The notes: generated from the letters alone by a model not told the origin. Numbered from the stretch's first letter, positions 31,296 through 54,086 are shown. The stretch: 64,000 bases of DNA from Anaerohalosphaeraceae bacterium (GCA_050309605.1 JBNRMN010000034.1:160001-224000), one strand, 5' to 3'. Program-made: numbers and translations.

Positions 31296-31516
31296 TCGGT
31301 ATTCCGGCTCGGTAGTTAATAAATTCTCGTTCAAAGCTGTTAACGCTGTATCGGCTGAACACCGGCGGCGTTTAAGGACAAGCTCTGAAAAGAATTCCCC
31401 GAATGAGCAATTCTGAGGGAAAAGTTGTGGACTATACCGGCTGTATCGATTGTTTGGTGCAGGCCGAAACTCGACACCGGATCAAATGAGATGCGCTGCT
31501 CAAGGTCCTATAAAAC

Positions 31517-31990: not shown

Positions 31991-32146
31991 TATCCCTTAA
32001 ATCAAACAAATGATTGTCGCGCTATTGTCCGTTCAAGAAAATTATCACAACTGCCGATAAAGAAATATGTAAATCGTGTAATCTGAGTTGATCTTAACCG
32101 GGCATAATAAAAAATCAATGTTAAATTTCATGGGAGAGGGACGCCT

Positions 32147-32911
32147 GTGCGACTGCTGGAGAATCGACAAACCCTGCACCGACGATTGACGGTACTTGAA
32201 GAGAGTCACCAACACCTATTACGGCAGCTTCAGCAGGCCCAACGGCTCAGCGGATTGGGACTGGCTTGGGCAATTACAGCCCACGAGCTGAACAATTTGC
32301 TGACATCCATGACCAATTATGCACGTCTTTCGCTGCACTACCCCGATGACCGGCAACTGAGCACAAAAGCCCTTGAAAAAACAGTGTTCATTGGGCAGCG
32401 TGCCGCCGATATACTCGAAAAAGTGATGGATCTGGCTTCCGGCAAGGCCATGGAGACCGAACGGATCGAAATGGACACCCTGCTGGATGACGTGTTGTTG
32501 TGTATCGGGCGGGATTTCGAAAAAGACGGCATTACGCTGGTGCGTCGCTGTCCGTCGGGGATTTCGGTGCGGGGGGATCGGGTGTTGCTGGGACAGGTCT
32601 TGTTGAACCTTCTGCTGAACGCCCGTCGGGCGATGCTTGCCCACGGCGGGACCCTTCATATGACCGTGCAATCCACCCCGAACGGAACACAGATCGAGAT
32701 TGCCGACAGCGGCAGCGGCATGTCTCCGGAGGTCATATCGCGTATTTTTGAGCCGTTTTACAGCGGCAGCGAGGTTCAGGCGGATTACGAGGGCAAGGGG
32801 TTGGGATTGTTTTTCTGCAGACAAATCATCGAAGCTCACAACGGAAGCATTCAGGTCCAATCCGCACCGCAGCGCGGAACAACCTTCAGGATTCTGTTGC
32901 CAACCGACTGA
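32147..32911 (+). CDS. Cytoplasmic histidine kinase with no sensor domain
   Basis: H box AHELNN, N box NLLLNA, DSGSG, IFEPF and GKGLGL. Confidence 0.9.
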   Translation: MRLLENRQTLHRRLTVLEESHQHLLRQLQQAQRLSGLGLAWAITAHELNNLLTSMTNYARLSLHYPDDRQLSTKALEKTVFIGQRAADILEKVMDLASGKAMETERIEMDTLLDDVLLCIGRDFEKDGITLVRRCPSGISVRGDRVLLGQVLLNLLLNARRAMLAHGGTLHMTVQSTPNGTQIEIADSGSGMSPEVISRIFEPFYSGSEVQADYEGKGLGLFFCRQIIEAHNGSIQVQSAPQRGTTFRILLPTD

Positions 32912-35268: not shown

Positions 35269-36051
35269 CTAAGGGACTTTGTAAGCGCTGTTGTCCGGCG
35301 ATAAAAACCCGACGGGCGAACGGGGATGCTGCTGATTGTACTGCTCAAGGGCTTGCTGATGCCGGGCCGGCTCGACTGTCGTATAGACGTCCGCTTGTGA
35401 ACGCGTACTGCCGTCGCCGCACGCCATATTGGTTTGCCGGTTGTGGCGAAACCCCTGTGTGCCGGCCCATCGGTCATTAAACGACAGATCGCCTTCGCTT
35501 CGCAGCGGGGCACGCATAAATTTATTGGCGCCGTGGATGTATTGGCCGTCGCCGAAAATTGCAACGCGCGCCGGCTGAGTCAAACGCCCGCGTCGCGCCG
35601 GCTGTGAAATGCTTTCTTGTTGACCGCGGCCGATGTAGCTGACGTTGTAATTGTAGCCGGTATAAGGATCGTAAGGGGTGTTCGACTCGCCCTGAAAAGA
35701 CGGACACTGCTGAACCTTGTCAACCGGTTCGCCCTGCCATAAAATTCCCGATTCAACGATGGGGTGTTCATCAACAAAACGTACCGTAAAATCCCAATTG
35801 TAGTGAATGGGTCCCTTATCGGTCTGCTGTGTATAGTACGCGATGGGAAAAAAATCGTTATGGTCTTCGGTATAGATCAACGCAGCGATCATCATCTGCC
35901 GCAGATTGCTTTGACAATAAACCGATTCAGCCTGCCGCCGGGCATGGGCCAGCACCGGCAGCGTGATCGCCAGCAGCAGCGCTGTAACCGCAATCACGAT
36001 CATCATTTCGATGAGCGTAAACGCCCCGATGTGTGGATTTTTTATCGTCAT
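35269..36051 (-). CDS. Prepilin-type N-terminal cleavage/methylation protein with H-X9-DG motif (DUF1559-like)
   Basis: AFTLIEMMIVIAV, CQSNLRQ and RHNRQTNMACGDG motifs. Confidence 0.88.
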   Translation of the reverse strand: MTIKNPHIGAFTLIEMMIVIAVTALLLAITLPVLAHARRQAESVYCQSNLRQMMIAALIYTEDHNDFFPIAYYTQQTDKGPIHYNWDFTVRFVDEHPIVESGILWQGEPVDKVQQCPSFQGESNTPYDPYTGYNYNVSYIGRGQQESISQPARRGRLTQPARVAIFGDGQYIHGANKFMRAPLRSEGDLSFNDRWAGTQGFRHNRQTNMACGDGSTRSQADVYTTVEPARHQQALEQYNQQHPRSPVGFLSPDNSAYKVP

Positions 36052-36053
36052 CT

Positions 36054-37010
36054 TCAAGGTTCGTCGCATTGCCAGGTACAGACCAGCCAGTGTTCGGCCA
36101 AAATCGCAAAATCCGCCAGATCCACGCGGCAGTCGTGATTCAAATCGCCCGGCGGAAACGGATGCCGGTAATCACCGCAGGCGGCGACATCGGCTACGGC
36201 GTCCAGTTCTGCCCATTCTTCACTGGTCAGCTTGACGTATTGGATCCATCGGCGTCCGCTGGCCGGGTCAATCCGCAGCGTCTCATAATCGTCGGGTTCA
36301 AGCCATTGCAGGTCAAACCCCGTCCCCCCCGCCGAACCGTCATACAGGGCGATGGCCTCGGGCACGGACAGTCCGGAAAAATCGCTTAGCGTCAGATTCG
36401 GATCGACGGGCCTGAGAAAATCCAGCGGCTTGCCCCACTGTCTGGAATCGCTGTCCCAGGCAAAAGGATTGGTCGGAAACAAATCGCCCGCGGACGCCCG
36501 GTCGGACGGAAACGTAAACCACGGCCCGTTGGGATCCTGGGCCACACTGACGGTCAGCCACTCGGCGTTCAGTGAGGCCGGCACGGTCAGCATAACCGTA
36601 TTCATATCCGTAGTCGGGGTCAGTTCGCCGCCGGCACGCTGAAAAAACGAATTGCTAAAGACGATAAAATCAATCCCGTAGGGGTTGTTTATGTCATCAG
36701 CGACTGGATGGTCAAACCCCACAACCACTTCGCTGCCCAACCCCAATGTCAGAACCGTCGGACGGCCGTCGGGCGTGACATTCCAGGCCGGATAAACCAG
36801 CGAGGCAGTAAACACCCCCTGTTCCCAACCGTCATAGACCTGCGTCGTCGGCGGGCCGAGTACCGCGTTGGGGTCATTATAGGGATAGACGCCGAACGGC
36901 CCTCGATACGAAACGAGCCGACTTGCAAAATCCGACCCATCCGAGGCCCATGCGACCGCTCCGACGGCAAATGTCAGAATTAAAACCGACTGAATCAGAG
37001 ATCGCTTCAT
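36054..37010 (-). CDS. Exported surface protein with C-terminal dockerin-like domain
   Basis: Signal peptide ending AWA; VVGFDHPV.D...DFIVFSN; GGTGFDL; tail GDLNHDCRVDLADFAILAEHWL. Confidence 0.75.
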   Translation of the reverse strand: MKRSLIQSVLILTFAVGAVAWASDGSDFASRLVSYRGPFGVYPYNDPNAVLGPPTTQVYDGWEQGVFTASLVYPAWNVTPDGRPTVLTLGLGSEVVVGFDHPVADDINNPYGIDFIVFSNSFFQRAGGELTPTTDMNTVMLTVPASLNAEWLTVSVAQDPNGPWFTFPSDRASAGDLFPTNPFAWDSDSRQWGKPLDFLRPVDPNLTLSDFSGLSVPEAIALYDGSAGGTGFDLQWLEPDDYETLRIDPASGRRWIQYVKLTSEEWAELDAVADVAACGDYRHPFPPGDLNHDCRVDLADFAILAEHWLVCTWQCDEP

Positions 37011-37014
37011 TTGT

Positions 37015-37605
37015 TTAATGTCCGCTGTTTTGTTTTCGTGAACGACAACAAACAACAGCCCCCGCTGCCAGCAGCACCATCGATGTCGGTTCGGGAATGG
37101 TCAAGCTGTCGCTGGTCCAGTTGGCGCCGTCCAGATTGAAGCCTTCGATGCGGCCGTGGCGAAGCTGCTGTTTGTCCACGCCGTCGGAATTGCCCGTCCA
37201 CGTCTGACCGCCGTCGTCGGTGTGGCCGGTCCACCACCAGCCGAAAAAGTCCGTTCCGGCGGTATGGTAATCGCCGTCCACCGTGGTTTGATCATAGATC
37301 ATATCGCCGATGAACCCCCCGCCGTATGCGAAAATCACACTCAACGGGCCGGCGGCTTCCAGCGCCGTCAGGGCGTCTTTGACGGTCGTCTGCGGGTCGT
37401 CCCAACGAAACCCGAAACAATGAAATTCGGTCTTGTATGGGCCGTTGGTCTGGTTCCAGTCGATGACGATAACGCTTTCGTTGACTCCGGAACCGGCCCA
37501 ATAATCGATCGTCAGCTCGACTCCCTGAATCAGATACGCCCTGGCGGGTGCACTACAGCATAAACCGACCAGCAGCCCGATCCACATACACCGTTGTTTT
37601 TTCAT
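37015..37605 (-). CDS. PEP-CTERM sorting-domain protein
   Basis: GAGAGGA RBS before ATG 37605; signal peptide ending ARA; C-terminus IPEPTSMVLLAAGAVVCCRSRK. Confidence 0.9.
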   Translation of the reverse strand: MKKQRCMWIGLLVGLCCSAPARAYLIQGVELTIDYWAGSGVNESVIVIDWNQTNGPYKTEFHCFGFRWDDPQTTVKDALTALEAAGPLSVIFAYGGGFIGDMIYDQTTVDGDYHTAGTDFFGWWWTGHTDDGGQTWTGNSDGVDKQQLRHGRIEGFNLDGANWTSDSLTIPEPTSMVLLAAGAVVCCRSRKQNSGH

Positions 37606-37807
37606 TGATATCCTCTCACTTGGTTTCATCATCCAACACAAACAGCCGTTTACATTCAGCGTCGGTCGGACGGCCGCGGTTGTCGGCAGACCCAAACCAC
37701 CGCGGCTGTCCCGAACCGTGCCGGCCCTCGGCGTCCGACCGAGAGCTGTGGAAATAATTACGTAACCCGTAACGTTGTGCCGTTGTTTTCCAGAATCCAC
37801 AAACCAC

Positions 37808-37844
37808 AAAAAAAGCCGCTGCCCTTCGCGAGAGGGGCAACGGC
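37808..37844 (-). terminator. Intrinsic terminator, probable riboswitch expression platform
   Basis: The minus strand reads GCCGTTGCCCCTCTCGCGAAGGGCAGCGGC followed by a T7 run. Confidence 0.75.
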
Positions 37845-37958
37845 TTATCATTATGCAGTCTTCGTCGGTTCTATGCGGAATATTCCTACAGGAATGTTCC
37901 GGGCTGTCCGACAGGCCGTCGTGTTCCAATCGCGAGAACACACGTACATATCATTGGC

Positions 37959-38158
37959 ATAAGGCAGGTTTTCTGACTCGCATCCTACCGCCGGACCCCT
38001 TCCCGTCCACAGCGTGGACAGTGGGACAATGTCTGACGGATTTGCCGAAAGCCAACCGCTCTCGACAGCGGACGCACACAGCGGCGCGACCGTCACGGAT
38101 TTTCACCGTGTTCCCGTTTTGGCATATTTGGCCCGATGAACAGGGCCAAACCTTAAGC
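37959..38158 (-). ncRNA. Cobalamin (B12) riboswitch
   Basis: The minus strand reads AAGGT...AAACGGGAACACGGTGAAAATCCGTGACGGTCGCGCCGCTGT...CCACTG...GGGAAG...GAGTCAGAAAACCTGCC (B12 box). Confidence 0.93.
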
Positions 38159-38283
38159 CAATTTCTGGACTTGTTTGAAAGAACGACACACACTGTAACG
38201 GACAGCCGGCAAAACGGCAACAAAAAAATCCCGCCGTTTTGAAAAACGACAGGATTCGAACATTTTGCGTTACGGCTGCATTT

Positions 38284-39891
38284 TCAGCCAAACTGGTCGA
38301 GGAAGTTGTTGATCAGCCTGGCGGCGGTTTTCAGGCAGATGGACAGATCCTGACGAAATGACAGGTTTCGAACATAGCGGGTGTCGTAATGGACCCACTC
38401 CTGAAAGTCCTGCCCTTCCTGTCGGGTGCGGCACACCTGCCACAGGCCGGTGATGCCCGGACGCACGGACAGCCGGGCGTCGCGCCAGGCCGGACAGGAT
38501 TCATTTTCGTTCTCCGGCGACGGACGCGGCCCGACCACACTCATCTGGCCGGCCAGCACATTAAAAAACTGCGGCAGCTCGTCGATACAGGTATCCCGCA
38601 AAAATTTGCCCACACCGGTGATGCGGGGGTCGTTGTCGATCTTAAACTGCGGGCCGTCCACCTGATTGACGACGCGCAAACGCTCCTGCAAAGCGTCGGC
38701 CTGCACCATCATCGTGCGGAATTTCAGACAGTTAAACTCTTTACCGTGAAGCCCCTGACGACGAGCGCGATAAAACACCGGCCCGCTGCTGGTCAGTTTG
38801 ACCATCACGGACACAATCGCCAGAACGGGACTGATCAGCAACAAAATACACAGTGAAAAGACAATATCGAAGATTCGCTTGCCCAGACGCGGATACGACA
38901 ACAAGGGCCAGTTGCGAAACGCCTGGTCCTGTTTGCGACGGGTTGAACTAAACTCTATTGCCGTCGAGCCTTGATGCCATGTATTCGGCGACGTGCAGAG
39001 TGCGTTTTGAATCACATCATCGGCCTTCACTTCCGTATTCGGCCCCAGAACGGCGTTTTGAACGACGGCTCCTTTGCCGATTTTGACATTCTCACAAAGG
39101 ATCGCCGGCCCGAGCACGATCGCATGATCTTCAATTTGCACCTCAGGGCCGATCCACACGGGACCGCTCAGACGAGCGGTCGGGGCAACCGCAGCCGATC
39201 CGTCCGTCTGGTTGAGTCGTCTTGCATCCATTCGTTCCAACAGGCTCAGCAATCCTTCGATGGTATTCAGGTCAAGACCCTGTCCGCCGAGTCGAAACCG
39301 TCTTAACGGAATGTGCATCTCGGCAAGCCGTTGTTTCAACACCTCAAGGTCAAGGGGGATAGCGCCTTGTTTTTTGAATTCAGAAATTATCTGATATGGC
39401 AGGTGTAAAAAATCCGGAAATGTCGAATCGTCCTCGCAGGTCGGCTCAATTAAATCCTCAAAGAGCCGCCGAACGCCGACAATGTGATGCTCAGAGGTTA
39501 GCCTGACCGGCTCATTGGAGGCGGCCAATTCCGGCGCCATCTGAACTGCGGCGACCGCCGTTCGGGAGGCATCCAGCAACGTATGGAGCTTGTGCGGATC
39601 ATACCGATACAAGCGGCGCGCGTTGCCAATCAAAATACCGTCTTTGGCTGACCCATTGAGCGAATCGACGGGCAGTCCGTCGGCGCCGAAACCCTGCATC
39701 GGCACGGCCGACCGGTCAAGATCATCCAGCCAGTCGGCCGGGACATACATCGCCGTTCGGTCGGCGTTAGGGTACCGCAGGCCGTTTAGCAGTGTATGTT
39801 GGAGCAGACCGCCCGCACCGGGCAGAGACAGAACATCTCGAAGGCAATCCCCGGCGTCTGTCGGTCGCGGCGGTATCAGAGCAATCAGCAT
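38284..39891 (-). CDS. Priming phosphoglycosyl transferase (Bac_transf) with N-terminal degenerate nucleotidyltransferase-like region and left-handed beta-helix
   Basis: C-terminal KRIFDI, KFRTM, DPRIT, DELPQ, SVVGPRP and PGITGLWQV; hexapeptide repeats ARLSGPVWIGPEVQIEDHAIVLGPAILCENVKIGKGAVV. Confidence 0.9.
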   Translation of the reverse strand: MLIALIPPRPTDAGDCLRDVLSLPGAGGLLQHTLLNGLRYPNADRTAMYVPADWLDDLDRSAVPMQGFGADGLPVDSLNGSAKDGILIGNARRLYRYDPHKLHTLLDASRTAVAAVQMAPELAASNEPVRLTSEHHIVGVRRLFEDLIEPTCEDDSTFPDFLHLPYQIISEFKKQGAIPLDLEVLKQRLAEMHIPLRRFRLGGQGLDLNTIEGLLSLLERMDARRLNQTDGSAAVAPTARLSGPVWIGPEVQIEDHAIVLGPAILCENVKIGKGAVVQNAVLGPNTEVKADDVIQNALCTSPNTWHQGSTAIEFSSTRRKQDQAFRNWPLLSYPRLGKRIFDIVFSLCILLLISPVLAIVSVMVKLTSSGPVFYRARRQGLHGKEFNCLKFRTMMVQADALQERLRVVNQVDGPQFKIDNDPRITGVGKFLRDTCIDELPQFFNVLAGQMSVVGPRPSPENENESCPAWRDARLSVRPGITGLWQVCRTRQEGQDFQEWVHYDTRYVRNLSFRQDLSICLKTAARLINNFLDQFG

Positions 39892-39999
39892 ATCAGACCT
39901 GAAACATACGCTTGTTCATAGCGAAGGGATAGGACGCAATCCATAACACACAGACGGTATTTGATTCCAAAAAGGAAGTATCGAAAAACACGATAAAAA

Positions 40000-42255
40000 T
40001 TAATGTTCGGTCGATTCGGCCACTTCGCTGAGCAGCAGTGTTTTGGATTTTTTTGTTTTATGCGCGGGGCGTTTGGGTTGTTTTTTGGCGCTGTAATGGT
40101 ACCCGTAACCGTATCCGTATCGCCGATAGCTGTGCGAGGTCTTGACGTTGTTGACGACGGTTCCGATGATATTGGCCTTGATTTCCTGAAGCCGTTTGGT
40201 GGCCTGTTTCATTTCCGTCTGCGAGGTGTGTCCGACAAAACTGGTCATAATGACGCCATCGGCCATTTTAGCCCAGACCATGGCATCGGAAAACGCCAGC
40301 ACCGGCGGTGTATCAATGATGATGTAATCAAACTCATCGCGAAGTTTACGAATTCGGGCGGCCGTATCCGGAAGGGACAGCAATTCAAATGCATCCTGTA
40401 TGTTGCGGTTGTCTGAAGCGAGTACAAACAACGGCATTCCCTCGACAGGATAAAGTGTTTTTTGGAGATCAATACCGAACAGATAATCCTGTATGCCGCG
40501 GTGCCCTGCCGACAGATTCAGCATTCCGGCAATATCGGGCTTGCGCAGATCGCCGTCAACCAGCAGTGTTTTACGGCCGGAACGGGCGAAACTGGTGGCC
40601 AGATTCACCGCCAGCGTACTCTTGCCGTCGCCCATACCGGGGCTGGTGATGACCAGCATTTTGGTTTCGCCGTCGCCGTCCAGCAGGCCGAGATTGGCGC
40701 GGATGGTTTGGTAATCATCCACAAGCTGACGTCCGAGGAGCTTTCGGCTGACGTGTTCCGGTCCGGTCGTCGTGCCGATAATGCGCACGCCCACCCGACG
40801 CGCTACGTCGTCCGGCGTATGGACGCGCCGATCCAGCTTGGCCAGCAAAAACGCCAGCGCCAGGCCCGCCGCCAGTCCGCCGAAGGGCGCCGCGGCCACC
40901 AGCTTCATCTTCTTGCCTTCCGCCGAGACGCTGCGCGCCCAGGAACCGATGGAAATCCGCGGCTGTCGGTCACGTTCGATGTTCAGTTCCTCGATACGCC
41001 GCGTGATTTCATTGTAAATCTGCCGTGAATTTTCAAACTGTTCGCGCAGGTCATCAATGTCCAATTGGGTACGACCGATGCGAATGGTGCTTTCGTCCTG
41101 CTCTTCCAGCTGGGCGATGATCTTTTCTTCATAAGTGATCAGCCGATTCAGCTCCGACTTGAGCGCTTCCAACTCGGCCTGCCGGGATCGTCTGACGTCA
41201 GCCAGGGCGATTTTTTCATAACGTTCGGTCGCTTCCTGCCGCTGTTTTTCCAGTTCTTCCTGAAGGTCGGCAAGGATCTGTCTTCTTCGCTGCATTTCGG
41301 GATTGGTGTCCAGCATCGTCGCCTGGCCGTCGCGAATGATCTGCTCATAACGACGAATATCCTGACGCAGGGCAACGATGGTCGGATCGTTTTCAACGCG
41401 CACCTGGATCTGGTCGGCGATGTCTTCGGCGGTCAGGGGTTCATTCAACTGTTGTTCTTTGGCCTGCACCCGCGCTTCCATCTGCATCCGCTGCACGCCG
41501 ATGGCGATTTGTTCCTGCTTGAGTGTAGCCACCTGCTGGAGTGCGATTTCCTGACGCGGCGTCAACTGTTCGGTACCGTATTCCTCAACCCGTTCGCGAA
41601 TCCGTGCCCGCTGGCGGCGCATCTGTTCTTCCAGGGTGCGGCGCTGGGCTTCCAGCCGTGCCAATCGATCATCAATCGCTCGGATTTCATCGGTTCGCAC
41701 AACGGCTTCATAACTGCGCAAAAATGCATCGATCAGCACCTCGGCATCTGCGGCGTGTTCGGTTTTCATCCGGACGTGAAGAAACTCCGTCTGGCGGTCC
41801 GGAATGACCTCAACGTCGCCTTTGGAAACCATACTGCGCAGTGCCTGCAACAGGTTCTGGCCGGGTTCAAAGAAGGCCAGCCGTCGATCTTTGACAGCGT
41901 CCGCTACGCGGTTCAAGACCACATCACTGGTCATTACGCCGGCCTGAGTATTTTTGAAGGTTTGATAGGCGCCCACGCCGCCTTGCGCGGTGGTCTCATA
42001 CATAATCGGCACGACCACGGAGGACACCAGCACCGAACCCTGGGTCTCATATTTATCGGGCATAAAGAACCAGATTCCCGCCGCCCCGCCGCCGCCGATG
42101 AAGATCGCACACAGCAGCACGATATACCATCGACGTAAAATAGCCATGGCCAGCTCGGCCATATCATCCGATGAATGGGGCTGCTCAGGCGCTTCGACAT
42201 AGTCAACCACCTCGCCATGAACCGGCGAGAAGGGATATTTTTCCAAATCCTGCAT
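40000..42255 (-). CDS. wzc: Polysaccharide co-polymerase/BY tyrosine autokinase (Wzc-like)
   Basis: Two TM segments flanking a coiled coil; Walker A SPGMGDGKS; DGDLRKP; IIDTPP; Tyr cluster YRRYGYGYGYHY. Confidence 0.92.
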   Translation of the reverse strand: MQDLEKYPFSPVHGEVVDYVEAPEQPHSSDDMAELAMAILRRWYIVLLCAIFIGGGGAAGIWFFMPDKYETQGSVLVSSVVVPIMYETTAQGGVGAYQTFKNTQAGVMTSDVVLNRVADAVKDRRLAFFEPGQNLLQALRSMVSKGDVEVIPDRQTEFLHVRMKTEHAADAEVLIDAFLRSYEAVVRTDEIRAIDDRLARLEAQRRTLEEQMRRQRARIRERVEEYGTEQLTPRQEIALQQVATLKQEQIAIGVQRMQMEARVQAKEQQLNEPLTAEDIADQIQVRVENDPTIVALRQDIRRYEQIIRDGQATMLDTNPEMQRRRQILADLQEELEKQRQEATERYEKIALADVRRSRQAELEALKSELNRLITYEEKIIAQLEEQDESTIRIGRTQLDIDDLREQFENSRQIYNEITRRIEELNIERDRQPRISIGSWARSVSAEGKKMKLVAAAPFGGLAAGLALAFLLAKLDRRVHTPDDVARRVGVRIIGTTTGPEHVSRKLLGRQLVDDYQTIRANLGLLDGDGETKMLVITSPGMGDGKSTLAVNLATSFARSGRKTLLVDGDLRKPDIAGMLNLSAGHRGIQDYLFGIDLQKTLYPVEGMPLFVLASDNRNIQDAFELLSLPDTAARIRKLRDEFDYIIIDTPPVLAFSDAMVWAKMADGVIMTSFVGHTSQTEMKQATKRLQEIKANIIGTVVNNVKTSHSYRRYGYGYGYHYSAKKQPKRPAHKTKKSKTLLLSEVAESTEH

Positions 42256-42328
42256 AGACTCCTCGTTGGGAATTTTTGCACACCTTGGTATCGCTTAGTG
42301 CATCCACGCAAAAAGCCGATTTAGTATT

Positions 42329-44308
42329 TCAACTGCTATTTCGGCTGAAAACGACCTGGTGTTCAACAGTTTCCGGCGGGTTAAATAAAACTTTCATCAA
42401 CCATAACTCCAACAGGATTAGCCCTATCGCCAACGGCATCATTGCCAGCCCGCCGAAATCGTGGAACAGCTCTTCAAGCCGTTCCGAATGCACATACGTA
42501 AACGCAATCGAGGTTAATGTTAAACGAATTGTATTGCATAGCAAGGCAATAGGGATTGTAGAAATCAAGAGAACCGCTTTTTCCCAGAGCTTGCGATTGG
42601 AGATCAGGACAACAAAACCGCTAATGACAAAGAAGGCCGTCAACATCCGTAATCCATTGCACGCCTCAGCCACCGCCACCACCGTTTCGCCAATGCGGAT
42701 CACATTGCCCTCGCGAATGACGTGATAGCCGAGGGTTTCCAGCGAAAACACCGCCGAGACGGTCGCAAATTGCTGCAGCGGGATCGTGATCATTCCCTCC
42801 ACCCGGCGCGGAAACGGAAGCATCAGGAAAAAGAACACAAACACCGGCAAGAAACGCCAAAAAAATGTCCAGCCATATAACAGCAGGATAATCCCTCCTA
42901 TGGAGAACACCAGCGCCAGCCGTTCGGCCGAGGCGAACATAAAATACAGCCCAAACAGCCGGAAGGCCTGGGCCGCCAGCAAGACCGCGATTCCCGCGAC
43001 GGCGGGTTTGACGGGACTGGCCAGAAATGACTGACGGCACGTCCATATCACATAGCCGGCCAGAAACGGCACCAGCAGGCCGCTGGAATATTCATCGCTG
43101 CGGAGCCAGACACTCCACAGATCGACAATCGTCGGCTTCCAATAGGCCGCCAATAACGCCCCGAAAAGCAGTACCGTCATCCCGAACAGCCCCCATTTTA
43201 ATCGAGGTCTGTCCAAACAGTCGGCCAAGGTGCCGGCGGTTTGTGTTACAGTCGGTTGTGGGTGGGTCCATTGTTTTAATCGCATAGAAATCCCCTCGGC
43301 CAATCCGCTCAACAGCCCTTTGGGTTGGGCCGCGGGCGTCTCATTCAAAACGACTCCGCTTGGAATCTTTCGCTGCCGATCAACCAGCGACCGGCGGATT
43401 TGACAGCCGCGGCCTATCGACGCATTGTCCCAGATTATGCTTTGACGGACAATGGTATTTTGCCCGATTTTGACATTTTTACCGATAGCAGCCGGCCCTA
43501 AAATGACCGCCTTGGCTTCGATCCGGCTTGCCGATTCAATCAAAACCGGACCGCAAATCCGCGCTGATTCGGCGATCTGAACATCCTTGCCGACCCACAC
43601 ATCACCGCTTGTCCCAACCGGCTGATAATTGGACCGCCAATCAGACTCCGGATCGGCGGCTTCAAGAAGCCCTGCAACAACGGTCATATACTGACGCCAT
43701 GTGGTAAAATGACCGGACGGGCGGAGTAAGCGGGCGGCATAGGGCGGTTTGTCGGCAGCGACAAGGGCGGGAATCAGCCCTTCTTTGATGTCTTCATAGC
43801 CCTTTTTCGGGATATAGGACAAAACGGATGGCTCACAGACATAAATCCCCGCATCCTTGAGGCCTCGGCCGTTGGCCCCGCAGGCGGGATTGAACAGGAC
43901 GGTCATCTCCGCCTGGCCGCTTCGATGGGCGGCGATTATCTCCTGAACATCCGGCGGCGATGCGGTGCAGGCGGCACATACAATCAACAGCTCGTCGCGC
44001 CCCGGATCGGCGGCGTCCAGAACCGAGCCGGCTGTGCCGCGCGGCATGGTTTGCTCGATATACTGAACTTGCAGTGTATCGGGAAGCGTGATCGCTTCGC
44101 GAATGTCGCCGGCCTGGTTTTCACAGCAAACGACAAACCGCTGCACGCCCTGGGCAGCGAGTTGTTCGATCAGGTGCTGCACAACGGGCTTGCCGGCAAT
44201 CTGCCATAAGGCGCGGTTATGCCGTGTGGCTATGGGACACCGCCCAAAATCCCGCCCGCCGACGAGGATGACCACTTTGATGTTGTTTATGGAAGTTGAG
44301 TCAGTCAT
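42329..44308 (-). CDS. Degenerate sugar-phosphate nucleotidyltransferase plus beta-helix, fused to exosortase (EpsH)
   Basis: N-terminal VVILVGGRDFGR...IAGKP and PRGTAG, then hexapeptide repeats. C-terminal multi-TM domain with VAEACNGLR, CNTIR and FHD (Cys/Arg/His triad). Confidence 0.9.
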   Translation of the reverse strand: MTDSTSINNIKVVILVGGRDFGRCPIATRHNRALWQIAGKPVVQHLIEQLAAQGVQRFVVCCENQAGDIREAITLPDTLQVQYIEQTMPRGTAGSVLDAADPGRDELLIVCAACTASPPDVQEIIAAHRSGQAEMTVLFNPACGANGRGLKDAGIYVCEPSVLSYIPKKGYEDIKEGLIPALVAADKPPYAARLLRPSGHFTTWRQYMTVVAGLLEAADPESDWRSNYQPVGTSGDVWVGKDVQIAESARICGPVLIESASRIEAKAVILGPAAIGKNVKIGQNTIVRQSIIWDNASIGRGCQIRRSLVDRQRKIPSGVVLNETPAAQPKGLLSGLAEGISMRLKQWTHPQPTVTQTAGTLADCLDRPRLKWGLFGMTVLLFGALLAAYWKPTIVDLWSVWLRSDEYSSGLLVPFLAGYVIWTCRQSFLASPVKPAVAGIAVLLAAQAFRLFGLYFMFASAERLALVFSIGGIILLLYGWTFFWRFLPVFVFFFLMLPFPRRVEGMITIPLQQFATVSAVFSLETLGYHVIREGNVIRIGETVVAVAEACNGLRMLTAFFVISGFVVLISNRKLWEKAVLLISTIPIALLCNTIRLTLTSIAFTYVHSERLEELFHDFGGLAMMPLAIGLILLELWLMKVLFNPPETVEHQVVFSRNSS

Positions 44309-44312
44309 AGGG

Positions 44313-45281
44313 TTATTTGACTTTGGATTTTGTGTGGTCGATAATCAATTGGAGCGTTTGGTCAAGCGAGTATTTGGCCTGGTAGCCGATTTGCTCGTGA
44401 ATGCGATTCAGGTTAGGCACACGACGCTGCATATCGTCAAAGGGCCGCCCGTAAGCGGCTTCATAACTGAGGAATACCTTTTCGCTGCGGCTGCCGGTCA
44501 ATTGGATAATTTTGTCGGCCAGGCCGCGGATGGTGATTTCTTCGTCTGAGCCGAGGTTATAGACCCGCCCGGCGGCGTGGGAGCACTCCATTAAAGCGGT
44601 CAGCCCGTCGATGACGTCATAGACACAGCAAAAACAGCGGCTTTGCCGGCCGTCGCCATAGATTTGGATGGGGTCGCTGCGCAGCGCCCGCTCGACAAAA
44701 CGCGGGACGACCATGCCGTATCGACCGGTCTGGCGCGGGCCAACCGTGTTGAACAGCCGCACCACGACCACCGGCAGACCATACTGCTGATGATAGGCCA
44801 GGGCCAGAAATTCGTCGATGGCTTTGCTGCACGCATACGACCAGCGGCTAAATCGGGTGCTGCCCAGGACCGTATCGTCGTCCTCGTGAAAGGGAATCGC
44901 CTCGCTTTTGCCATAGACCTCGCTGGTGGAGGCGATCAGGACTTTTTTGCCGAATTTGTTGGCGATGGACAACACGACTTCGGTGCCGTGGATGTTGGTC
45001 TCGATGGTGTGGACGGGGCGATCGACGATGAGCTGCACCCCCACCGCCGCGGCCAGATGATAGACCACATCGCAGCGTTCGATGAGCAGATACATCGTGT
45101 TGGCGTTGCGGACCGAATCCAGCACGAACGAAAAGTTCGGATGGCCCCGCACCGCCGTCAGATTGTCCAGAGAGCCGGTGCTGAGATCATCAACGGCCAC
45201 GACCCGATGTCCGTCTGCCAGCAGCCGCTCGGCCAGATGAGACCCGACAAACCCCGCCCCGCCGGTAATTAAGATGTTCAT
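44313..45281 (-). CDS. NAD-dependent nucleotide-sugar epimerase/dehydratase/decarboxylase
   Basis: TGGAGFVG, STSEVYG, YACSK and NTVGPRQ motifs. Confidence 0.92.
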   Translation of the reverse strand: MNILITGGAGFVGSHLAERLLADGHRVVAVDDLSTGSLDNLTAVRGHPNFSFVLDSVRNANTMYLLIERCDVVYHLAAAVGVQLIVDRPVHTIETNIHGTEVVLSIANKFGKKVLIASTSEVYGKSEAIPFHEDDDTVLGSTRFSRWSYACSKAIDEFLALAYHQQYGLPVVVVRLFNTVGPRQTGRYGMVVPRFVERALRSDPIQIYGDGRQSRCFCCVYDVIDGLTALMECSHAAGRVYNLGSDEEITIRGLADKIIQLTGSRSEKVFLSYEAAYGRPFDDMQRRVPNLNRIHEQIGYQAKYSLDQTLQLIIDHTKSKVK

Positions 45282-45560
45282 AGTTTTTGGTTCTTCGTTT
45301 TGAGTGGGTTATCTGCTTTTCCGCTATCAGCAGCCGGAGTACAGCAACTGATGCGAAACAGGTTTTAAGACGCGACATAGCCGCAACCCAATTCGAAATA
45401 TACCCTTCAGGGTAGAAAATATGATTAATCTACATATGCCCCTTGGAGGTGGTCAAAATCAAAGAATGAAATCGATGTATCGCCAAGCCATTCCGCATAA
45501 CCCATACAGACCATCTATTTTACCTAAATTTCCAAATGGGTTCGTTTTGGAAAAACTTAA

Positions 45561-45728
45561 TAACTCAAACTGACCGATGGCCAGTTTGAGAGATCAAAAA
45601 TCAAAGATTAAAGAGCAAAATTGAGGATTCGCCCTTTCGGGCGAGCTTTTTTACGGCCTTTTTGTGGACACTGTAACATCTTTTATAGACTATATTTATG
45701 TCAAAACAGATCCGCTTTTGGGTCAGTT
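45561..45728. repeat. Dispersed non-coding repeat B, copy 1
   Basis: 45609-45709 is identical to 51052-51152; the left part also matches about 63566-63626. Confidence 0.9.
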
Positions 45729-45867
45729 GCGGTTCAATTATTATTTTTCGTTGCGACCGATTATCAGACATTTTCCACCAAAAACTGACAAACTCGATCA
45801 ATCACCCCCTGCCGGTTCGGGATACGGGGTTTGTCGCCATGATCCTTTGCTACTGTTTTTTTACCCA

Positions 45868-46977
45868 TCAAGATAATTTGTCTATCATAATATTGACTAT
45901 TCGCTGAGAGGCTTTTCCATCCCAAAGGGGAGGAATTTGGAAAGTTTTCAGTTTTCCGCTTGTGATATGTCTGTAGCCGTCAATCATTTTCTGCGGATCA
46001 TTTCCAACCAGTTGATTGGAGCCTATTTGGACTGTCACTGGCCGTTCTGTATTATCACGAAGTGTCAGACAGGGAATCTTAAGTACCGTTGTCTCTTCCT
46101 GTATCCCGCCGGAGTCTGTCAAAACAAGTTTTGCATTTGAAAGCAATTGTAAGAAATCCAAGTAACCCACAGGATCCATTAATCGTAATCCCTGCATAGA
46201 ACTAATGCGAGAAGACAGTCCGGATTGCGTAAGATTTTTTCTTGTCCGCGGATGGATTGGAAAGAGAATGGGCATATCCCGTTGAATAACTTCAAGCCCA
46301 TCAAGAATTCTCGAAAAATTAACAGAGTCATCCACATTTGAGGGACGATGCAATGTCAATACGGCAAACCGTTCGCCATTTAACACATGTTGTTTTTTCA
46401 GATGTTCAAGAATGAGCGAGTGCCGGGCTTTTTTGAGATTATTATAAAGTGTGTCAATCATCACGTGTCCGACCATATGAATCTTGTCTTCGCAGACACC
46501 TTCATTGATCAGATTGTCCACACCGCTTTGTTCGGTGCAAAACAGCAAGTCGCTGATTGAATCAGTCAATATCCGATTGATTTCTTCAGGCATCGTACGG
46601 TCGAAACTGCGCAGCCCTGCTTCAACATGAATCAATTTTATGCCCAGCTTGACAGCAACCAGACCGCAGGCAATCGTGCTGTTGACATCGCCAACGACCA
46701 GCATTGCATCGGGTTTATATTGCAGAAGAACCGGTTCAATGGATTTCATTATTTCAGCAGTTTGAACGGCATGACTGGCAGAACCTACACCCAAATTGAT
46801 ATCCGGTTGAGGGATACCGAGCTGGTCAAAAAACAGATCAGACATGGCTTTGTCATAATGCTGGCCGGTGTGGACAAGCAGCGGTTTTATGGCGTTGTGT
46901 TTGCAGTACTCAGCCATGAGCGGCGCAATTTTCATAAAGTTTGGCCGCGCGCCGACAATATTGATTATTTTCAACAT
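45868..46977 (-). CDS. wecB: UDP-N-acetylglucosamine 2-epimerase (non-hydrolysing)
   Basis: GARPNFMK, HTGQHYD, HVEAGLRS and TDSGGIQEE motifs. Confidence 0.95.
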   Translation of the reverse strand: MLKIINIVGARPNFMKIAPLMAEYCKHNAIKPLLVHTGQHYDKAMSDLFFDQLGIPQPDINLGVGSASHAVQTAEIMKSIEPVLLQYKPDAMLVVGDVNSTIACGLVAVKLGIKLIHVEAGLRSFDRTMPEEINRILTDSISDLLFCTEQSGVDNLINEGVCEDKIHMVGHVMIDTLYNNLKKARHSLILEHLKKQHVLNGERFAVLTLHRPSNVDDSVNFSRILDGLEVIQRDMPILFPIHPRTRKNLTQSGLSSRISSMQGLRLMDPVGYLDFLQLLSNAKLVLTDSGGIQEETTVLKIPCLTLRDNTERPVTVQIGSNQLVGNDPQKMIDGYRHITSGKLKTFQIPPLWDGKASQRIVNIMIDKLS

Positions 46978-46999
46978 TGGGCAAACTCCTCAAAGAAAA

Positions 47000-47785
47000 T
47001 CACTTCTGTTTGACACGTCCCAGTCGATGCCGCAGAATTTCCGGGACACTTAAGGCCAGAAAGATAGAATTGGTGACAAAGTAACGCTTCCACATCCGGC
47101 TAGGTTCCTGTATCACGCGATACAGCCATTCCAGTCCGGCTTTCTGCATCCAAAGAGGCGCTCGCTTTGTAACACCGGCAAAAACGTCAAAGCTGCCGCC
47201 GACGCCATGACATACGGGGACATTGAAGACGTTCTTGAACCGATCCATAAACATTTCTTTTTTGGGTGGAGTGATGGCCACAAATAAGATGTCCGCATTG
47301 CTGTCGCGAATTTGATCGGCCACCCACTGCCCGTCTGTTTCCAGATCAAAGTAACCGTCGTGACAACCAGCTATTTGAAGACCGGGATAATCCTGTTGTG
47401 CTTTTTGAACTACTGTATCAAGAACGGCCGGTTTAGCCCCGAGAAAAAAAATGCGATAGCGTTTTTTTGCTGCGCGCTGCATCAAGCCGTACATTACATC
47501 AATGCCGGCTACACGTTCAGGCAATGGACATCCGGCAAGACGGCTGAGCCACACCACACCCTGTCCATCGGCGGCGGTCATGTCCGATTCCATAAGACTC
47601 TTGCGCAGTTCTGAATTTTTCCGGCAATTGACGAGCTTGGCCACATTAACCATGCCGAGTACCAAAGTTGTTCGCTTTAGAATTGCCTCTTCACAGCAAT
47701 CCAAAAGCTCATTCATTCTGATTTTGTTTATACCTATTCCGATCAGATGAATCGTTGGATACTTTCGAAGAAGAGACGACATCAT
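47000..47785 (-). CDS. WecG/TagA/CpsF (GT26) glycosyltransferase
   Basis: ERVAGID, GVGGSFD and RAPLWMQKAGLEWLYR motifs. Confidence 0.93.
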   Translation of the reverse strand: MMSSLLRKYPTIHLIGIGINKIRMNELLDCCEEAILKRTTLVLGMVNVAKLVNCRKNSELRKSLMESDMTAADGQGVVWLSRLAGCPLPERVAGIDVMYGLMQRAAKKRYRIFFLGAKPAVLDTVVQKAQQDYPGLQIAGCHDGYFDLETDGQWVADQIRDSNADILFVAITPPKKEMFMDRFKNVFNVPVCHGVGGSFDVFAGVTKRAPLWMQKAGLEWLYRVIQEPSRMWKRYFVTNSIFLALSVPEILRHRLGRVKQK

Positions 47786-47793
47786 TAACCTTT

Positions 47794-48954
47794 CTATTGC
47801 GATTTATTTGTGTGATCCGCCCATGCGTAAAGTATCCAACCCAAGTGATAGGGTCGGCATTCCCGGTTCACTTGAAAACCCCAAATCGGTTTACCTAACA
47901 AGCGATGACATTGATCGGCCTGCAAAACACAACAGACGCTTCGAGCAAAACGACTGAATTTCGGCAGTTCCCGGCGTTCGATATCGCGCCAGATAATGCC
48001 TTTTTCGGGAACTATAAGATTTTCTTTTAGCTCATTATTTCCAAGCAACCAACGCAGTCCTAACTCAATATTCTTGGTATGATCGGCACCGGAAACCTTA
48101 TCCGCTGCTAATATTGCCATCGGCGCCATTGCGTCTTGGTGTACCGAAAAGATGGGATACTCTTCACAGACTTTTCCGGAGTTCACATCATAGTGCCACA
48201 TCCATTGGCCTAAGGGCCCCTGAAATTTGCATATCGATTCTACGACGGAAGCGGCGCAGCGTATGCTCCAATCATCATTAAACGCAGCTCCATAAGAGGC
48301 CATGGCGAGAATCGGGTAGATCTGATCTGCAAAACAGGAGATGGTTCGTCCGACTTTAAGTCGTCCTTTTCGATTATGGCGTCGAAACAGTCTCTGTTGG
48401 GGACAATATAACGATTTTAGACGAGAATACGCGTCGTCAAGAAGCGGACGAATCCTTTCGGCCCATTGACGGTTTTCGGATTTTGTACACAGTACAGCAG
48501 CCTGAACAACCCACCCCAGTTCTACGGCGTTGCACAAATCGCGCTGATGAGACCATAAAGAAAGGACAACATCAACAAACCGATCTGGTTTTGACTCTTT
48601 GCTTTCGATTGCTGCCCACAGAGTCAGGGCAGCGTCACCCATATGCTGAATTTCAGAAATCCGGCTTAAAATCGCAGGGAAAAGATTAGGCAAAAGCGTC
48701 TTGTCTTCAGCATAATAGTCGAGCCATCTGGCAATGCCTATTTGACTTATTGCAGCATACCTTAGACTCTTACCGATTATTTTGACTTGCTTGCAGTCTT
48801 TCAGCCGAGTTGTGTAAGGTAATTGTACGGAAGAGTTGATGTAACCATTAGTCAATCCCTGTTTTGCAGTATTGCATAATAATGCCACAATCTGTGTGTA
48901 ATTAGTTACAGTTTGCGGATTTTCTTCAATCAACATGAGCAAGCTCCGGAGCAA
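47794..48954 (-). CDS. Hypothetical EPS-cluster protein (start uncertain)
   Basis: Long co-directional ORF within the operon; no family recognised with confidence. Confidence 0.7.
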   Translation of the reverse strand: MLRSLLMLIEENPQTVTNYTQIVALLCNTAKQGLTNGYINSSVQLPYTTRLKDCKQVKIIGKSLRYAAISQIGIARWLDYYAEDKTLLPNLFPAILSRISEIQHMGDAALTLWAAIESKESKPDRFVDVVLSLWSHQRDLCNAVELGWVVQAAVLCTKSENRQWAERIRPLLDDAYSRLKSLYCPQQRLFRRHNRKGRLKVGRTISCFADQIYPILAMASYGAAFNDDWSIRCAASVVESICKFQGPLGQWMWHYDVNSGKVCEEYPIFSVHQDAMAPMAILAADKVSGADHTKNIELGLRWLLGNNELKENLIVPEKGIIWRDIERRELPKFSRFARSVCCVLQADQCHRLLGKPIWGFQVNRECRPYHLGWILYAWADHTNKSQ

Positions 48955-48980
48955 ATTTCGATAGGTTTATTTTGTTTCTA

Positions 48981-49880
48981 TTACAAAACAGATACCTTGT
49001 TGAAGGTGAGAATTCTCTTGATTTGTTCTTTGCGAATATATTCGACAAGTTCTGTTGGGACCTGTCGGTTATCATGGTGAAAAAAACCATAGCAATAACC
49101 TAAAAAGCGTGCACAACCACCGATTAAAAAAGGCGATTCTTTGAAACATCGCTTAAACGATTTTAATAATACAAACAAGACATGACTTCCTAAAAAATAG
49201 TCCCCCATCCCCAAGCGAAATCGAATTTTCAACAATCCCTTTGTATGACCGGTTCCGACGGGCTTGTTGTGAACGGCCACGACATCGGGAAACGACCAGG
49301 TCTTCCAGCCGTTCATTCGGGCGGCAAAGCAGGCAACGGTATCTTCATAGCCATACTTCATCGGGACAAAGCCGCCGACCTGGTCAAAACATTTCTTGTT
49401 GAATACCATCAGGGCCTTGGGTGTTGAGCGGCGGTCGTTGAGCACCTTGCGGATGCGGCCGTTGCCGAGATTATCCACATAGACGCCCGAGGCGATGCCC
49501 AATTTGGAATCGCTGTGCATCCGCGTCAGAATCTTTTCGTAATAATCAGAAGGCAATTTGATGTCGGCATCCAATATCGCCAGGAAGTCGTAATTTTGAA
49601 TTTTGAATTTTGAATTTTGAATGTGATTGATGCCGTGTCTTATGGCATAGACGTTGCTGGCGTAATAGGTTTGTGCGGGGTCTTTTTCTCGATAGACATA
49701 ATGAATCCACGGATGCTGTTGGGCATAGCGATTAATTATGTCCGCCGTCGGATCGGTTGAACCGTCGTCCACGATCACCCAAACGAGAGGTTTGATTGTT
49801 TGCGCCAGAACGCTTTGAATCGTTTGCTCAATGTACGCCGCCTCATTAAAGGCTGGTGTGATGATAAAAAATCGAAACAT
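48981..49880 (-). CDS. GT2 glycosyltransferase
   Basis: IITPAFNEA, VDDGSTD and LDAD motifs; start reassigned to ATG 49880. Confidence 0.9.
   Translation of the reverse strand: MFRFFIITPAFNEAAYIEQTIQSVLAQTIKPLVWVIVDDGSTDPTADIINRYAQQHPWIHYVYREKDPAQTYYASNVYAIRHGINHIQNSKFKIQNYDFLAILDADIKLPSDYYEKILTRMHSDSKLGIASGVYVDNLGNGRIRKVLNDRRSTPKALMVFNKKCFDQVGGFVPMKYGYEDTVACFAARMNGWKTWSFPDVVAVHNKPVGTGHTKGLLKIRFRLGMGDYFLGSHVLFVLLKSFKRCFKESPFLIGGCARFLGYCYGFFHHDNRQVPTELVEYIRKEQIKRILTFNKVSVL
49592..49622. repeat. (AATTTTG)x4 tandem heptamer inside the GT2 gene
   Basis: Four perfect units plus AAT; read as IQNSKFKIQN in the protein. Confidence 0.9.
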
Positions 49881-50018
49881 TTTTTTGAAGACTATGATAT
49901 TGGTTTTCAGGCACAAACGAGCTATCCGGCACAACGCCCCGTGCCTCATGGAGCAGCGTTCCAACCCTGGCGTTGCAGGGGCGTAGCCAACGTTTTTGCG
50001 AAACCTCAAAATGCAAAA

Positions 50019-50076
50019 TTTGCTGGTCTGGCTTGTTTTTTTGCGCTGTTTTAACCATTTTTGCAAAAGTCCAGTT
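50019..50076. repeat. Direct repeat A, copy 1
   Basis: TTTGCTGGTCTGGCTTG...TTAACCATTTTTGCAAAAGTCCAGTT; nearly identical to 51189-51244. Confidence 0.9.
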
Positions 50077-50094
50077 CGTAGTTCTTAGCGGTTG

Positions 50095-51018: not shown

Positions 51019-51037
51019 TGTTTACCCTAATTGATCT

Positions 51038-51171
51038 ATGGCCAGTTTGAGTAAAGAGCAAAATTGAGGATTCGCCCTTTCGGGCGAGCTTTTTTACGGC
51101 CTTTTTGTGGACACTGTAACATCTTTTATAGACTATATTTATGTCAAAACAGCTCCGATTTTCGGTCAGTT
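51038..51171. repeat. Dispersed non-coding repeat B, copy 2
   Basis: Shares 101 identical nt with copy 1; contains the hairpin TCGCCC-TTTC-GGGCGA followed by a T run. Confidence 0.9.
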
Positions 51172-51188
51172 TGATTTAAAAATTATGT

Positions 51189-51244: not shown

Positions 51245-51251
51245 ATTAAGA

Positions 51252-52876: not shown

Positions 52877-52890
52877 TCTATGATCCTATT

Positions 52891-54081: not shown

Positions 54082-54086
54082 ATAAA

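Follow-up and report, generated by a model that had tools for sequence, protein, structure and literature searches.

Three adjoining minus-strand open reading frames (ORFs), within a 64,000-nucleotide stretch of DNA from an Anaerohalosphaeraceae bacterium (GCA_050309605.1 JBNRMN010000034.1:160001-224000; hereafter the window), encode an exosortase (P0003), a Wzc-type tyrosine kinase (P0002) and a monotopic priming phosphoglycosyl transferase (PGT; P0001). Structural modeling indicates that the exosortase and the PGT each bear a cytoplasmic N-terminal module which consists of a nucleotidyltransferase (NTase)-like domain and a left-handed beta-helix (LbH), of the type found in GDP-mannose pyrophosphorylases (GMPPs) and in the gamma and epsilon subunits of eIF2B. 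The three genes are the conserved core of a Phycisphaerae-type exopolysaccharide (EPS) locus. The favored reading, to which we assign a probability of about 0.5, is that the two homologous modules, both apparently catalytically dead, pair as a heterodimer that would tether the exosortase to the PGT under the control of a ligand. An ORF check reproduced exactly the coordinates which a sequence-only reading of the window had given for the three genes (Table 1).

The exosortase bears an NTase-like and beta-helix module

The N-terminal portion of P0003 scored above the Pfam cut-offs for NTP_transferase (PF00483; residues 11-140, 36.9 bits versus 21.2) and LbH_EIF2B (PF25084; residues 236-323, 59.4 bits versus 54), and the C-terminal portion matched Exosortase_EpsH (PF09721; residues 384-637, E 6.2e-55, 186.8 bits versus 25.7). 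The structure of the protein was modeled with 53 homologues (pLDDT 80.9). The module (residues ~3-351) aligned with eIF2B-epsilon (7f66_I) with a Z score of 28.8 over 324 residues and a root-mean-square deviation (rmsd) of 3.4 Å, as well as with GMPPB (7d74_G; Z 28.2), VTC1 (Z 28.0) and AGPase (Z ~26), and Foldseek E-values extended down to 1.8e-17. The linker that precedes the membrane domain was modeled as a helix at residues 332-348 and a stretch with pLDDT <50 at residues 347-357.

The generic exosortase models TIGR02602 (137.5 versus 105.55 bits) and TIGR04178 (57 versus 23 bits) also were passed by P0003. Among the best 25 of 67 NCBIfam matches no named exosortase subfamily reached its cut-off, with values of 161.6 bits against 400 for XrtD, 131.8 against 425 for XrtW and 128.8 against 208 for XrtA. 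Residues C550, R595 and H616 were invariant in 53 of 53 aligned sequences. These residues, which we take to be those of the proposed transpeptidase site, correspond to the Cys/Arg/His triad that had been described as intact from the window alone.

P0003 resembles the sugar-1-phosphate nucleotidyltransferases both in fold and in profile, and P0001 in fold only. The catalytic signature of these enzymes was not found in P0003 when it was aligned with GMPPs. In phmmer alignments between the P0003 N-terminus and GMPPs, GGRDFGRCP faces GGFGTRLRP without gaps and the Arg of the G-x-G-T-R motif is replaced by Gly22, while HNRAL faces TPKPL, again without gaps, with Arg32 in place of the Lys of P-K. 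The gap-free register bears out the earlier interpretation of these two stretches as departures from the GGxGTR/PK signature of active enzymes. In the same alignments the Asp of the N-S-D element is substituted by Ala and that of the W-x-D element by Thr, and P0003 residues 140-152 face target residues 144-180, a segment of ~25 residues with the EKP motif being missing. The aligned Arg, Lys and Asp positions, the two Asp being metal-binding, are presumably the catalytic ones, and EKP presumably is the sugar-phosphate-binding motif of active enzymes.

The exosortase module nevertheless is highly conserved. Among 53 sequences with 42-93% identity, F21, G22, C24, W35, G54, P89, G91, G94, H128, P167, G170, D173, K175, E176 and Y207 were invariant, and D20, R23, A33, L34, P36, Y156 and C158 were nearly so. 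As this conservation is strong and specific to the family, the replacements are not attributable to decay, and the module appears to be a pseudo-enzyme under strong selection. The conserved residues fall in elements that line the nucleotide pocket of the fold. A small ligand or another partner is the most likely occupant of this putative pocket (DFGRC, ALWP, PxGxxG, H128, Y156/C158 and DxKE). The sequence-only reading had suggested that the modules may sense NDP-sugars; the invariant motifs of the pocket region are the sole hint of such binding, and the EKP-bearing segment is absent.

The priming transferase bears a degenerate counterpart

The sequence-only reading had recognized no signature in the N-terminal module of the transferase and had regarded its NTase assignment as the weaker of the two. 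Pfam searches indeed produced no match in residues 1-230 of P0001. Residues 234-301 matched Hexapep (E 6.7e-6) and LbH_EIF2B (E 3.3e-5), both below the cut-off, and residues 338-527 matched Bac_transf (PF02397; E 6.5e-64, 215.2 bits). An AlphaFold2 model of the protein was built with 60 homologues (pLDDT 89.3). Residues 1-312 aligned with 8x7s_C (tlr0611; Z 15.4, 270 residues aligned, rmsd 5.3 Å), eIF2B-epsilon (Z 14.6), VTC1 (Z 14.5) and GMPPA (Z 14.2), the set of NTase-plus-LbH proteins overall yielding Z 13-15.4. The literature search found no paper on tlr0611. Thus, once structure searches were run with the modules, the weaker assignment held at the level of a confident model, and the proposal that both modules share one NTase-like and LbH fold was borne out by alignment of the models, with best Z scores of 28.8 for the exosortase and 15.4 for the PGT. 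When the two modules were compared directly by BLASTP, likeness was detected in the LbH alone (36% identity over 64 aa, E 2e-10).

The C-terminal portion of P0001 (residues 326-529) aligned with WbaP (Z 22.9) and PglC (8e37_A; Z 21.6). In addition to the PF02397 profile and the PglC-like fold, the D437-E438 pair of the PGT was invariant in 60 of 60 aligned sequences. Judged from these residues and from the exosortase triad, the catalytic domains of both enzymes are intact. The full-length model of large monotopic PGTs (monoPGTs), TIGR03025 (EPS_sugtrans), was matched only at profile positions 244-439 with 269.9 bits, which is below the cut-off of 295.55. The NTase-like and LbH module occupies the place where a large monoPGT has its membrane bundle and cytoplasmic domain.

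The PGT module is poorly conserved, with only P51, E127, R142, L208, G243, G261 and P262 standing out, and the mean column identity of the whole protein was 36%. The absence of the catalytic signature from both modules, as had been proposed, takes a different form in each: the relevant positions are replaced in the exosortase module and the PGT module carries no signature. We infer from the aligned motifs that neither module is an active sugar-1-phosphate nucleotidyltransferase.

The two modules are predicted to pair

Exosortase residues 1-345 and PGT residues 1-325 were submitted to complex prediction as a hetero-pair, with own alignments for both chains. The complex scored 0.67 (three runs, 0.66-0.68) compared to 0.01 for the best of three controls. 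Of 157 solved complexes 116 attained the mark applied to this score, as did 2 of 215 mismatched pairs; these counts are only a rough guide as own alignments were used. The runs agreed in at least 80% of the contacts and the partners had pLDDT values of at least 79. In the predicted interface the beta-helices lie side by side, with residues 250-303 of the exosortase chain against residues 242-310 of the PGT chain, and the edge strands of the NTase-like domains also are paired (residues 188-192 with 134-140). Residues of the PGT module at this interface were more conserved than the remainder of the module (0.422 versus 0.336), and 282 of 10000 random sets scored as high. The models suggest a pseudo-symmetric heterodimer of the two modules.

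The exosortase, Wzc and PGT genes form a fixed triad

A search of public data for the exosortase fusion returned 728 matches at E ≤ 1e-3 among 8000 scored candidates. The 120 matches that were listed all possessed PF09721 and LbH families, 112 of them also contained PF00483, and their lengths were ~650-680 aa save for two partial sequences of 458 and 557 aa. Named matches were labeled just "exosortase", with one annotated as "Bifunctional protein GlmU". The PGT module was harder to trace: a word-based search gave only six relatives, and in a profile search of 1.84 billion representatives the best 150 matches started at or before profile position 120 in 89 instances and at or before position 241 in 142. 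By comparison of sequences, the PGT module evolves faster than the exosortase module.

The locus was surveyed by scanning one genome per species, which yielded 383 relatives, the best 80 loci being analyzed. The NTase-LbH module and the exosortase were in a single frame at 76 of the 80 loci. As these are independent loci from metagenome-assembled genomes (MAGs), the recurrence of the fused frame led to rejection of the possibility that the fusion is an assembly artefact. Among the exceptions, L016 ends at a contig edge and the frames are broken in L024, L036 and L043, where the fused exosortase is distributed among two or three frames; in L036 a gap of 4603 nt separates it from the PGT.

Each of the 70 loci whose downstream DNA spans 3 kb or more has a module-bearing PGT on the same strand, downstream of the exosortase, although the loci were picked by likeness to the fused exosortase and are kin to each other, and hence do not represent 70 independent events. 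The N- and C-terminal parts of the PGT were in a single frame in 67 of the 70. The gap between exosortase and PGT genes was 1934-4603 nt with a median of 2361, and a Wzc homologue was present between the two genes at 70 of 71 loci under a strict test, the remaining locus having a Wzc frame that overlaps that of the PGT. Exosortase, Wzc and PGT thus comprise a fixed gene triad in this clade. In an even sample of 201 genomes from the phylum, six possessed a full-length fused exosortase (G000, G139, G158, G175, G006 and G093). In four of these, a module-bearing PGT follows ~2.5 kb further downstream on that contig; the remaining two assemblies, 86% and 79% complete, are fragmentary, and the best PGT match in them is truncated on a short contig.

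Beyond its own family, the exosortase module has its closest relative in a further PGT of 698 aa (P0281; G136 contig 20, L008:4583-6679) in which NTP_transferase, above its cut-off, and LbH are fused to Bac_transf. The likeness amounts to 29% identity over 355 aa (E 1e-31) and includes a D-I-K-E motif and the shortened segment; the corresponding loop of P0281, GGPGSVRM, also is non-canonical. This locus contains a Wza-like gene and an ABC-2 transporter, without an exosortase. The fusion in cis implies that this type of module belongs with priming transferases in the first place. On the evidence of the alignments, the exosortase carries that module type instead in the clade of the window, and the PGT keeps a degenerate copy.

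The same locus was observed in MAGs labeled Pelotomaculum sp., Pirellulales and Lentimicrobiaceae (L013, L014 and L018), which look like mis-binned or mislabeled Phycisphaerae contigs; L013 and L014 have identical HMM coordinates and E-values. Separately, a 319-aa ORF upstream of the PGT in genome G041 was considered as a free-standing module of the exosortase type and was rejected (hhalign probability 0.5%).

Proposed mechanism and alternative explanations

The proposed mechanism starts from two intact membrane enzymes of one EPS operon that bear homologous modules in a fixed exosortase-Wzc-PGT order. Both modules, to judge from their motifs, would be catalytically dead and would heterodimerize in the manner of GMPPA/GMPPB, AGPase and eIF2B-gamma/epsilon. 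The dimer would tether the exosortase to the PGT, which produces the first lipid-linked sugar; the gene for the Wzc co-polymerase lies between their two genes. The conserved putative pocket of the exosortase module would provide ligand-dependent control. As a result, the activity of the PGT, which depends on dimerization in other monoPGTs, and protein sorting might be coupled or co-regulated. The available part of PMC12802240 supplies a precedent, the EpsW-EpsZ system of Myxococcus xanthus, in which a cytoplasmic partner is proposed to activate a monoPGT by promoting its dimer.

Several observations weigh against this mechanism. Similar complexes have been solved (eIF2B, GMPPA/B and AGPase), and the pass in complex prediction may reflect family likeness; moreover, the controls were unrelated proteins instead of other NTase-LbH proteins. 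Conservation of the interface on the exosortase module was not above background (0.605 versus 0.566, a value that 2063 of 10000 random sets matched or exceeded). The 25 best contact pairs showed no enrichment of covariation: their mean percentile of 0.568 was matched or exceeded by 666 of 5000 random sets, and three pairs ranked among the top 5% but none among the top 1%, in an underpowered analysis of APC-corrected mutual information across 61 paired loci and the reference (effective number of sequences, Neff, 54). The suggestion that the modules bind each other is supported by the prediction, 0.67 against 0.01, and was not backed by covariation at the contacts. The expected co-occurrence of the two fusions likewise survives in one direction. 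At the assessable loci the exosortase fusion was always accompanied by the PGT fusion, whereas the converse failed as the PGT module also occurs with an unfused exosortase in genomes of the same class. The triad on contig 52 of G136 comprises an unfused 328-aa exosortase, Wzc and a 473-aa PGT whose N-terminus aligns to the module profile from column 86, and G041 has a similar PGT of 469 aa. Searches of the 99-100% complete genomes G041, G155 and G189 detected no exosortase-type module at E ≤ 1e-3. The conserved E127 and R142 are retained in the PGT modules of these genomes, and so cannot serve the heterodimer only.

The presence of the PGT module without its exosortase counterpart implies that it has a role of its own, and the most substantial rival builds on this: the modules may be independent, each a homo-oligomerization or regulatory domain of its own enzyme, which share an operon by common descent and make no mutual contact. 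In the PGT, for instance, the module would stand in for the cytoplasmic domain and beta-hairpin by which large monoPGTs dimerize. We view this as possible, yet somewhat doubtful. In its favor, homo-oligomers are, as we understand it, common among NTase-LbH enzymes such as AGPase, GMPP and GlmU, and no enrichment of covariation was seen across the predicted interface. The N-terminal module is attached to PGTs in G041, G155 and G189 with neither a fused exosortase nor a detectable exosortase-type module, as well as in the contig 52 triad of G136. WbaP is a functional homodimer, and the accessible portion of PMC12802240 describes PGT dimerization as regulatory in M. xanthus. Set against these points are the pairing without exception in the fused-exosortase clade (70 of 70 assessable loci) and a hetero-complex prediction that passed with clean controls. 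In addition, the full-length PGT module, extending from residue 1, was seen in loci with a fused exosortase, whereas in the unfused lineages that were examined it is shortened and lacks the first ~45-90 profile columns.

Two other explanations are less probable still. Both modules might dock on the tyrosine kinase ring of Wzc, instead of or besides each other, with Wzc recruiting the exosortase and the PGT. The position of Wzc between the fusions, or overlapping the PGT frame in the single exceptional locus, accords with such a hub, as does the location of the most conserved residues of the exosortase module mainly outside the predicted interface, which leaves a surface free for another partner. 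Gene adjacency is weak evidence of binding, however, and unfused triads keep Wzc too, so that the adjacency is not specific to the modules; we consider the hub unlikely. It is highly improbable that the modules are active enzymes, either as divergent sugar-1-phosphate nucleotidyltransferases or as LbH acyltransferases that supply or modify the donor sugar at the membrane. Although P0003 exceeds the NTP_transferase cut-off and keeps the P-x-G-T-A-G element, and a basic residue occupies the site of the Lys in 32 of 53 sequences, the Arg is changed to Gly, both Asp are replaced and the EKP-bearing segment is deleted, positions that we take to be catalytic. Furthermore, the PGT module is without any signature, and the LbH, with only ~4-5 coils, is most similar to the eIF2B/GMPP type, which is non-catalytic. 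An active enzyme would gain some plausibility from the described class of bifunctional monoPGTs, to which catalytic domains are fused (PMC11626204, available part).

Organization of the locus

The core belongs to a long minus-strand operon that extends from ~62993 to 35269. The operon also encodes a Wzx-type flippase, an asparagine-synthase-like amidotransferase, five GT2 glycosyltransferases, three FemAB-like GNAT proteins, a methyltransferase, WecG, a UDP-GlcNAc 2-epimerase and an NAD-dependent epimerase/dehydratase. The product of a gene at 35269-36069, which combines an N-terminal methylation motif with DUF1559, points to Planctomycetota, and the closest named relatives are MAGs of Phycisphaerae, Sedimentisphaerales and Anaerohalosphaeraceae. 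P0002 displays all of the attributes of a BY-kinase of the Wzc type, namely the kinase profile (TIGR01007, 126.1 versus 108.05 bits), an N-terminal Wzz domain (28.3 versus 25.5 bits) and a cluster of tyrosines in the C-terminal tail (YRRYGYGYGYHY).

Table 1. Coordinates of the core genes, their domains and the adjacent PEP-CTERM ORF in the window (aa, amino acid residues).
Feature	Coordinates	Strand	Basis
P0003, exosortase, 659 aa	42329-44308	-	ORF
P0003, putative pseudo-NTase domain with invariant non-canonical D-F-G-R-C loop, aa 10-230	43619-44281	-	PF00483, fold
P0003, left-handed beta-helix (LbH), eIF2B/GMPP type, aa 236-325	43334-43603	-	PF25084; beta-coil pattern in model
P0003, linker with amphipathic helix and low-confidence stretch before first membrane helix, aa 326-375	43184-43333	-	Model
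P0003, exosortase membrane domain, aa 376-659 and stop	42329-43183	-	PF09721, TIGR02602
P0002, Wzc-type tyrosine kinase, 751 aa	40000-42255	-	ORF
P0002, Wzc-type polysaccharide co-polymerase/tyrosine autokinase	40000-42255	-	Wzz aa 31-119, P-loop families aa 532-710
P0001, monotopic priming PGT, 535 aa	38284-39891	-	ORF
P0001, strongly degenerate NTase-like domain without sequence signature, aa 1-230	39202-39891	-	Fold only
P0001, left-handed beta-helix, aa 231-312	38956-39201	-	Sub-threshold Hexapep/LbH matches, LbH likeness, beta-coils in model
P0001, re-entrant membrane helix and monotopic PGT catalytic domain (Asp437-Glu438), aa 333-535 and stop	38284-38895	-	PF02397
PEP-CTERM ORF directly downstream of PGT	37015-37941	-	IPEP, hydrophobic stretch, RSRK; true start probably internal

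The G+C content is ~0.55 in the core (window 36001-46000) and 0.41-0.47 over the glycosyltransferase and flippase part (46001-64000). The step would fit a variable glycan cassette, swapped or acquired, beside a conserved core. The three FemAB-like GNAT genes (Acetyltransf_6) are in tandem and, with the gene for the asparagine-synthase-like amidotransferase, are located at window 52891-56460 and 59664-61466; the amidotransferase weakly matches the model of the XrtA/PEP-CTERM system amidotransferase (57 bits versus a cut-off of 816.9). Together these genes suggest that the polysaccharide is decorated with amino acids or peptides. A stand-alone response-regulator receiver gene on the minus strand and a divergent HATPase_c gene at window 31517-32911 could be regulators of the locus. 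They lie just upstream of the TPR gene at 29685-31334, the product of which shows a weak likeness to PrsT (101 bits versus a cut-off of 312).

The genome (3.4 Mb, 99.7% complete) contains 45 PF07589 (PEP-CTERM) matches at E ≤ 0.1, with 34 over the cut-off. One of these, at window 37033-37101 (G000:C34:197033-197101; 22.9 bits, over the cut-off), lies in the ORF directly downstream of the PGT. A PEP-CTERM gene in this position was considered as a feature of the system and was rejected: in a regular-expression scan it recurred, apart from the window, at one of the 62 loci that extend 1.5 kb or more past the PGT, and that locus (L010) is the closest relative. The PEP-CTERM ORF is followed at window 36054-37055 by the gene for a 333-aa protein with no family match and a Cys-rich dockerin-like tail. 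The genome has two exosortases. The second is unfused, consists of 387 aa and is encoded on contig 23 (G000:C23:27056-30841; exosortase L001:1216-2379, plus strand) immediately downstream of a Wza-like Poly_export/SLBB gene. Like P0003, it falls outside the named Xrt subfamilies (XrtA, 150 bits versus a cut-off of 208).

Relation to known systems

The two-domain fold is shared with GMPPA/GMPPB (7d72-7d74) and VTC1/KJC2 (8yre), with Z scores of 28.0-28.2 for the exosortase module, as is the presence of one or more dead partners; the contact predicted for the modules here would likewise run via beta-helices and NTase edges. GMPPA is an inactive allosteric sensor. The known pairs combine an active enzyme with an inactive paralogue, whereas both partners here appear dead from their sequences and the pair includes no active pyrophosphorylase. 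Moreover, the modules here are tethered to integral or monotopic membrane enzymes and the EKP-bearing segment is deleted. The gamma and epsilon subunits of eIF2B are non-enzymatic NTase-plus-LbH proteins that form a heterodimeric scaffold. They provide the best structural matches of the exosortase module (7f66 and 9hve; Z 28.7-28.8), and LbH_EIF2B is the beta-helix family that exceeded its cut-off. Unlike the eIF2B subunits, the proteins described here are bacterial, membrane-anchored and of unrelated function, and identity is only ~18-20%.

PEP-CTERM/exosortase (EpsH, XrtA) sorting systems have been linked to EPS loci (Haft et al. 2006, PMC1569441, available part). The locus in the window conforms to this pattern, with an exosortase that has an invariant Cys/Arg/His triad in an EPS locus with a Wzc-type kinase, a priming transferase and a TPR protein. 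It departs from the pattern by the 345-residue cytoplasmic pseudo-NTase/LbH module, assigned as such from motifs, by the misfit to any named subfamily and by the partner PGT with a related module. The bifunctional monoPGT (BiPGT) class, in which extra domains are fused to a monoPGT, is credited to O'Toole, Imperiali and Allen (2021) in the accessible text of PMC11626204. P0001 is similar in that a monoPGT core is joined to an additional soluble N-terminal domain. The BiPGTs in that text have fused catalytic acetyltransferases and glycosyltransferases, whereas the module of P0001 looks non-catalytic and has a counterpart on another enzyme of the operon. The assertion in the sequence-only reading that priming transferases normally lack such domains accordingly needs softening, since PMC11626204, in the part available, presents the BiPGT class with fused extra domains. 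In EpsW-EpsZ of M. xanthus, too, a cytoplasmic partner acts on the initiating monoPGT of a Wzx/Wzy pathway through a proposed effect on its dimeric state. The partner in that system is a phosphorylated response regulator and the PGT a large monoPGT, whereas the partner proposed here is an exosortase domain (PMC12802240, as far as the available text extends).

The literature search found no paper on an NTase-like module on an exosortase or on a paired module on a PGT, the BiPGT catalogue of O'Toole 2021 being outside that search. To the extent covered by the available parts of PMC1569441 and PMC11626204, the linkage of exosortases with EPS and the existence of fused bifunctional monoPGTs are already known, and the NTase-like module on the exosortase with its counterpart on the PGT appears to be new.

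Significance

The anchor to which exosortases join their substrates and the reason for their genetic link to EPS synthesis have been in question since Haft et al. 2006 (PMC1569441, available part). A conserved cytoplasmic module, apparently a pseudo-enzyme, across an exosortase clade, together with a relative on the PGT two genes away, offers a concrete hypothesis that is cheaply testable, as the soluble modules can be expressed without the membrane parts. The modules would lengthen the short list of dead NTase-LbH scaffolds, which includes GMPPA and eIF2B-gamma/epsilon, by a bacterial example that is tethered to the membrane, and would enlarge the catalogue of fused monoPGTs by a probably non-catalytic class. 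A bolder and rather unlikely extension is that a fixed exosortase-PGT complex, perhaps with Wzc, lets the exosortase transfer cleaved PEP-CTERM proteins to an acceptor, namely the lipid-linked glycan that the PGT has initiated, with a nucleotide-sugar-like ligand in the conserved pocket of the dead NTase domain as the gate. If true, this would be the first physical explanation for why exosortases travel with EPS genes, and sorting would amount to glycan anchoring that is coupled to the initiation of EPS synthesis.

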